DNA of 64,000 bases, taken from the NCBI RefSeq assembly GCF_024700885.2, contig NZ_CP117016.1, one strand, 5' to 3'. The DNA comes from Escherichia coli (lineage in GTDB: Bacteria; Pseudomonadota; Gammaproteobacteria; Enterobacterales; Enterobacteriaceae). Shown in pieces: positions 46,243 to 46,254 of the stretch. A program made the position numbers and the translations under genes. The stretch's first letter is position 1. The number at the start of each line of letters is the position of its first letter. The notes under the pieces are model-generated. The model made no database searches. It was not told the DNA's origin and saw only the letters and a list, made by a program, of their open reading frames with translations.

Positions 46243-46254
46243 TACGCTACCGCC
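46243..46254 (-). promoter_or_regulatory. ops-like element GGCGGTAGCGTA (RfaH recruitment, part of JUMPStart) in the kpsM leader
   Basis: 11/12 match to GGCGGTAGCGTG, about 29 nt upstream of the kpsM ATG on the coding strand. Confidence 0.55.

Follow-up and report, generated by a model that had tools for sequence, protein, structure and literature searches.

Previously described kps leaders and RfaH recruitment sites

In the K5 capsule locus of Escherichia coli, transcription from the region 3 promoter extends into region 2 by an RfaH-dependent read-through that requires an ops (operon polarity suppressor) element located 28 bp upstream of kpsM (Stevens, Clarke and Roberts 1997, as cited in PMC8960920). 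The promoter PR3 lies 741 bp upstream of kpsM in K5, and the long leader that results has been reported to modulate the amount of transcription reaching region 3 (Aldawood and Roberts review, PMC8960920). For EAEC 042 it has been shown by ChIP-seq and bandshift that the 16-mer TGTGATTTATATCACA in the kpsM leader is a CRP site, which embeds the -10 element of a second, CRP-repressed kpsM promoter, P2 (PMC12360894).

The kps ops of CFT073 (K2) reads GGCGGTAGCATA, begins 40 nt before the kpsM start and is bound by RfaH in the wild type according to ChIP-seq (Hustmyer et al. 2022, PMC9765446). Without rfaH, the occupancy of RNA polymerase in CFT073 falls almost to background as the end of the kps transcription unit is approached, and the ratio of the kps traveling ratios in the deletion strain and the wild type is about 0.1-0.34. 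In the same study the exact 12-mer GGCGGTAGCGTA was an RfaH-bound site at locus c1882, and the RfaH-bound loci were coated by H-NS/StpA (PMC9765446). The contribution of single ops positions has been analyzed by mutagenesis (Zuber et al. 2018, PMC5995543). The validated RfaH targets of K-12 all have a T11-G12 dinucleotide in common. The exchange T11G ranks with the most harmful substitutions, and G12C abolishes the pause at U11 in vitro, yet RfaH recruitment is not abrogated by it (PMC5995543).

Organization of the capsule locus

The DNA analyzed here, referred to as the window, is a 64-kb stretch of E. coli sequence. Its annotation was taken from RefSeq strain MLI114, to which it is identical over positions 28100-54000. 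Beyond about 54000 (54000-54060) an ungapped comparison with MLI114 loses register, which suggests an indel or a strain difference in the gsp region; MLI114 possesses a copy of the 8-mer GGCGGTAG near this point that is absent from the window. Two further matches at the Rfam gathering level are located elsewhere in the window, to the C0719 sRNA (61056-61277, plus strand, 299 bits) and to the IS102 RNA (12571-12807, plus strand, 72.5 bits). From yghD (gspM), the locus continues across 1.17 kb of intergenic DNA into kpsM, kpsT and another three genes of the same strand; kpsS-C-U-D-E-F come next and are encoded on the other strand:

45438..46214 (ATG 46214..46212), minus strand: kpsM, ABC-2 permease of region 3 (RefSeq; Pfam ABC2_membrane, E 1.9e-15)
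44785..45441, minus strand: kpsT, ABC transporter ATPase of region 3 (RefSeq; ABC_tran, E 8.8e-17)
38575..44525, minus strand: region 2 with three serotype-specific genes (RefSeq, Pfam)
41202-44525, minus strand: region 2 gene 1, 1107 aa, N-terminal CDP-glycerol glycerophosphotransferase (TagF-like) domain
39728-41101, minus strand: region 2 gene 2, 457 aa, fusion of an IspD-type cytidylyltransferase and a short-chain dehydrogenase (SDR)
38575-39711, minus strand: region 2 gene 3, 378 aa, no Pfam family
37179-38414, plus strand: kpsS, on which region 2 converges

Region 2 is flanked by kpsFEDUCS and kpsMT, regions 2 and 3 are convergent on region 1, and gsp/yghD is adjacent. The locus is a group 2 capsule locus, with the layout also found in Nissle 1917, CFT073 and EC958. 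The reading frames of kpsM and kpsT overlap by 4 nt, and a gap of 259 nt with approximately 28% GC (44526-44784) separates kpsT from region 2. As had been stated in a reading of the DNA made from its sequence alone (hereafter the sequence-only reading), region 2 is co-directional with kpsMT: all three of its genes are on the minus strand.

Region 2 has a GC content of 28-34%, region 1 one of about 50%. EC958, which has been typed as KL100/K100, possesses a region 2 with the same three genes. The third protein is 97% identical to its EC958 counterpart and the 1107-aa polymerase only 82%, from which it follows that the window carries a relative of K100 and not K100 itself. The differences between the two polymerases are spread over residues 60-1000, while their ends are near-identical. 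This suggests a sister K type of K100 with a mosaic polymerase. The capsules of K18, K22 and K100 are composed of ribose-ribitol-phosphate.

The ops element and its JUMPstart context

The element is located directly upstream of kpsM and comprises the following features:

46254..46243, minus strand (the kpsM coding strand): ops element GGCGGTAGCGTA (direct sequence reading and exact-match search)
46281..46243, minus strand: JUMPstart element, 39 nt, CAGTGTATTGGTAGCTGTTAAGCCAAGGGCGGTAGCGTA (Rfam RF01707), with the ops as its 3' end
46215..46242, minus strand: spacer of 28 nt between ops and the kpsM ATG (from the sequence)

The plus strand reads tacgctaccgcc at 46243-46254, so the coordinates, strand and sequence given in the sequence-only reading for a motif on the non-template strand just upstream of kpsM were accurate. 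Its count of 29 nt before the start codon also holds in the sense that the final ops base is at -29 relative to the kpsM ATG. This leaves 28 nt between ops and ATG, the same geometry as the 28 bp given in the literature, and places the first ops base 40 nt before the start of kpsM (46254 to 46214). The single difference from the canonical ops GGCGGTAGCGTG that had been noted was likewise found, a G to A exchange at position 12. The core contacted by RfaH, GGCGGTAG with G4, G5, T6, A7 and G8, is exact at 46254..46247 on the minus strand. With respect to the 12-mer consensus GGCGGTAGnnTG and its T11-G12 pause dinucleotide, T11 is retained and position 12 is an A. The missing G12 does not exclude the site from the ops elements, as the RfaH-bound kps and c1882 sites of CFT073 carry A12 as well and 31 of 111 JUMPstart-embedded ops elements in a survey lack G12 (see below).

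The description of the motif as "ops-like" was right about its reality and understated what it is, since the 12-mer forms the 3' end of a full JUMPstart. The 39-nt element scores 58.5 bits against RF01707 (gathering score 35) over model positions 1-38 of 38, with E = 4.5e-12 in a 4-kb scan and 7e-11 for the whole window, in which it is the only JUMPstart match. By itself, the 12-mer is statistically unremarkable. At up to one mismatch one match was found in the 64-kb window compared to 0.24 expected, and at least one match occurred in 21 of 100 shuffled sequences; the 8-mer core GGCGGTAG occurs twice compared to 1.2 expected. It is non-random because it closes a full JUMPstart and is near-invariant in kpsM leaders that diverge to 80% identity.

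The second core is located at 37731..37724 on the minus strand, antisense inside kpsS and in the path of region 2 read-out, as part of the 12-mer GGCGGTAGCGAG (37720-37731); this copy was also found in strain MLI114. It was considered as a site for reloading of RfaH and rejected, given its antisense position in kpsS, its lack of T11 and a core count within chance (1.2 expected). Reloading is further disfavoured by the observation that in CFT073 RfaH is not loaded at ops-like sites within coding sequence (PMC9765446).

The site is positioned on the non-template strand of an untranslated leader, with promoters (placed by homology) upstream and kpsM downstream, and the genes that follow on the same strand are kpsMT and the three capsule genes of region 2. 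The site thus agrees with the usual place of an ops at the head of a long, horizontally acquired operon with cell-envelope or virulence functions. An open reading frame starting with TTG (45438..46274) crosses the ops; it is a mechanical upstream extension of kpsM, whose start is the ATG at 46214 in RefSeq and in all homologues. The spacer contains an AGGA (46230..46227), the only candidate Shine-Dalgarno sequence, although its distance of 12 nt from the ATG is long for such a sequence. This distance would be compatible with the proposed role of RfaH in ribosome recruitment. Taken together, the feature is very probably (probability roughly 0.93) the ops site of the group 2 capsule region 3 leader, situated within a JUMPstart element and loading RfaH for read-through.

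The leader upstream of the element

The promoters whose transcripts cross the ops were placed by comparison with described leaders:

46215..47070, minus strand: long untranslated kpsM leader (alignment with the Nissle 1917 leader; start by homology)
46816..46831: CRP site TGTGATTTATATCACA, the sole TGTGA-N6-TCACA in the window (0.08 expected)

In a pairwise alignment the leader shows 97.6% identity to that of Nissle 1917 and one gap of 116 nt. The block absent from the K5 leader corresponds to window positions 46505-46620 and amounts to one extra repeat unit. Due to these additional 116 nt, the equivalent of the K5 PR3 start is placed by homology at approximately 47070, i.e. at -856. The CRP half-sites of TGTGATTTATATCACA form a perfect pair that is invariant across all leaders aligned. 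As the CRP/P2 site is located upstream of the ops, transcripts from P2 would also cross it.

Six copies of a palindromic motif of about 21 nt, AAATAATTTC-N5-GAAATTA in mRNA sense, are distributed over positions 46349-47016 of the leader (minus strand). Their 5' ends precede the kpsM ATG by 802, 667, 537, 406, 290 and 155 nt, corresponding to spacings of 135, 130, 131, 116 and 135 nt. A loose pattern of the motif gave no further match on either strand of the 64-kb window, and the motif cores are conserved in diverged leaders. The leaders of K5 (Nissle 1917), K1 (ATCC 11775) and Z135-5 lack exactly one unit of 116 nt, that at 46505-46620. Tandem Repeats Finder returned nothing for the leader, the motif being too short relative to the spacing of about 130 nt. 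No description of the motif was found in the searchable literature, where a search with the literal sequence retrieved unrelated papers only. The copy nearest to the ops (46357-46373, minus strand) has the form of a terminator-like hairpin, GCGGAAATAATTTCTGC followed by TGAAATTTTT. The polymerase would pass this hairpin without RfaH, since the ops follows only about 100 nt later, and the hairpin may be connected with the modulation by the leader of transcription into region 3.

Conservation of the element and variation at position 12

The 1-kb leader was found in 1623 of 5426 complete E. coli genomes. The 79-nt stretch from JUMPstart to ATG is present in 1681 of the 5426 and identical in 1044; it adjoins kpsM in every whole-stretch match among the matches listed. 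About 300 genomes show 90-95% identity to this stretch and are roughly as divergent as the K2-type variant. Nine leaders with 80-100% identity were aligned (K1 ATCC 11775, K2 CFT073, ATCC 25922, ST131 strains and others). Their mean column identity is 81%, but there is essentially no variation in the block that begins about 10 nt ahead of the JUMPstart and ends at the ATG. In all of 15 kps leaders, including those of K5 and EC958, the ops reads GGCGGTAGC[G/A]TA and varies only at position 10 (G/A), and the spacer is exactly 28 nt. As all 15 carry A12, this residue is a fixed feature of the Escherichia kps leader and not a lesion of one strain.

Position 12 was further surveyed in one genome per species (GTDB representatives) using the JUMPstart core GGTAGC-N4-AAGCC-N2-GGGCGGTAG. 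The survey yielded 111 loci, of which nearly all belong to Enterobacterales. A T occupies position 11 in 110 of them, whereas position 12 is a G in 80 loci, an A in 14, a T in 13 and a C in four, so that 28% (31/111) are without G12. This indicates that A12 is a normal minority variant and position 12 the soft end of the motif. Yersinia loci consistently end in GCGTT, and those of Klebsiella and Raoultella often in GCGTA or GCGTC. A close KpsM homologue is encoded directly downstream at six of the surveyed loci, three from Escherichia (A12, 28-nt spacer) and three from Pantoea. The occurrence of the pairing in Pantoea despite turnover of the spacer indicates that the juxtaposition of JUMPstart and kpsM is older than the Escherichia leader. 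Its retention despite spacer turnover would fit a site that acts just before the first gene.

JUMPstart elements were also recovered on contigs of four assemblies labelled Arthrobacter, one labelled Bacillus and seven MAGs assigned to Firmicutes or Tenericutes. The elements of the four Arthrobacter assemblies are mutually identical and lie on short contigs (1.4-6.9 kb). These non-enterobacterial contigs probably represent contaminating or mis-binned enterobacterial or plasmid DNA.

The exchange at position 12 is the main point that can be raised against loading of RfaH at this site, which lacks the G of the pause-inducing TG pair common to validated K-12 targets. It could be read as marking a weakened, conditional loading site at which only slow polymerases acquire RfaH, so that read-through into region 2 is tuned. 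A12 is fixed in 15 of 15 Escherichia kps leaders and the kpsM-linked JUMPstarts of Pantoea keep G12; moreover, the U11 pause is lost in vitro with G12C, and among the ops substitutions examined in a reporter only G2C did not lower the RfaH effect (PMC5995543). However, the A12 kps ops of CFT073 gives an RfaH ChIP signal and a strong RfaH-dependent effect on the traveling ratio, so a weakened site appears unlikely. The frequency of other residues at position 12 of JUMPstarts (31/111) shows that such a residue need carry no special meaning, and the mutagenesis of position 12 used C, not A. The stronger version, according to which fixed A12 is a selected weakening of the pause that together with the long leader gates acquisition of RfaH and makes capsule read-through conditional instead of automatic, is about as unlikely. 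The objection to loading of RfaH at an A12 site is countered by the retention of RfaH recruitment in G12C and by the loading of RfaH at A12 kps sites in vivo.

Probable read-through into region 2

Under the preferred reading, in which the site loads RfaH for read-through, RNA polymerase would start at the region 3 promoter or promoters (PR3/P1 or the CRP-repressed P2), about 0.6-0.86 kb upstream, and transcribe the untranslated leader. At the ops, the transcription bubble would expose the non-template strand, the minus strand of the window with the sequence GGCGGTAGCGTA. The exposed strand is predicted to form a small C3:G8 hairpin in which G5 and T6 are offered to RfaH, with the polymerase paused at U11. 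RfaH would then bind and refold its C-terminal domain, remain on the polymerase and exclude NusG, and it could couple the polymerase to a ribosome as kpsM begins 28 nt later. Rho-dependent termination, and termination assisted by H-NS/StpA, would be suppressed by this, allowing transcription through kpsMT and the AT-rich region 2. The rfaH gene itself is absent from the window. With its GC content of 28-34%, region 2 is the kind of H-NS-prone DNA that RfaH counter-silences. Loading of RfaH and dependence on it, which have been shown by others for identical or orthologous sites, would by analogy be expected to hold for this K type. That such read-through occurs in K5, as the sequence-only reading had stated, corresponds to the published model (Stevens et al. 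1997, in the form cited in PMC8960920).

Transcription of region 2 mainly from internal promoters, with RfaH and ops mattering little for region 2 in this K type, is improbable. The AT-rich 259-nt gap between kpsT and region 2 would be compatible with a separate transcription unit, as it contains a weak hairpin (44580..44563, minus strand), the only terminator-like structure that a scan gave from the ops to the end of region 2. However, no promoter-like hexamer pair was found on the minus strand of this gap. In the K5 and K2 loci, which have the same leader, expression of region 2 or progression of the polymerase depends on RfaH, and the conserved orientation of the operon also argues against internal region 2 promoters. 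The same scan gave no intrinsic terminator where region 2 ends.

An action of the JUMPstart mainly through structure of its transcript, instead of through the non-template DNA, is given slightly less credence still. Rfam models the JUMPstart as a cis-regulatory RNA with a 5-bp stem, UUGGU/GCCAA, which is situated upstream of the ops and can be formed by the window sequence, and the outermost pair of this stem varies between loci as U-A, U-G or C-G. However, 96 nt of RNA around the element fold no better than shuffled sequences (z = 0.13), and the minimum-energy fold does not contain the Rfam stem. The DNA-hairpin mechanism of ops is experimentally established (PMC5995543), and roles of the RNA stem and of the non-template DNA are not mutually exclusive. 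Finally, a functionless ops-like 12-mer arising by chance, which the expectation of 0.24 per window and the second GGCGGTAG antisense in kpsS would in principle allow, has a negligible probability and is excluded by the JUMPstart score, with the flanking 27 nt completing the element at E of about 1e-11, and by conservation, with the element invariant among leaders that have diverged and 1681 E. coli genomes containing the JUMPstart-to-ATG stretch.

As the ops site of the kpsM leader, the element explains the probable expression of the K100-like capsule genes by RfaH-dependent read-through from the kpsM promoters, and it marks rfaH together with the ops as a single control point for capsule production.

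Comparison with known systems

The ops/JUMPstart of kps is an already known and published signal. New in the present analysis are the observations that a sequence-identical element heads this K100-like type of region 2, that A12 is universal among the kps leaders sampled and that the pairing of JUMPstart and kpsM extends to Pantoea. Beyond a correct annotation its importance is small, as such an element is ordinary for K5, K1 and K2 capsules.

The window site shares positions 1-11, including G4, G5, T6, A7, G8 and T11, with the canonical ops GGCGGTAGCGTG of the waa/rfaQ, rfb/wzx, hly, tra and wza operons, but A12 loses the G+1 of the consensus pause signal. JUMPstarts of other E. coli, located upstream of an O185 rfb cluster and of a wzi-wza-wzb-wzc cluster, are identical to it in the 26-nt core GGTAGCTGTTAAGCCAAGGGCGGTAG, whereas their last bases are GCGTG (rfb) or GCGTC (group 1 capsule) and the gene sets that follow are different. 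In Pantoea sp. alder81, P. rodasii and Pantoea sp. A4, a JUMPstart is located 31-34 nt before the ATG of a KpsM homologue with 73-84% amino acid identity. These elements differ from that of the window by a canonical GCGTG and an unrelated spacer sequence.

The K2 locus of CFT073 resembles the window in the position of the site in the leader, in A12 and in its AT-rich downstream genes, which are bound by H-NS in CFT073, whereas GGCGGTAGCATA additionally carries an A at position 10. A search for the K5 leader with the CFT073 leader as query retrieved K2-type leaders only; Nissle 1917, a K5 strain according to its annotated kfiA, kfiC and kfiD, was fetched by accession. The comparison with the K5 element that had been proposed on the basis of the sequence showed JUMPstart, ops and 28-nt spacer to be 100% identical, and full identity holds for 87 nt that begin 40 nt ahead of the ops and end 7 nt past the kpsM ATG. 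The K5 element is also on the same strand, at the same position and in the same layout of kpsMT followed by region 2. The two loci differ in that the leader of the window is 116 nt longer and in that a K100-like region 2 of three genes replaces kfiA-D.
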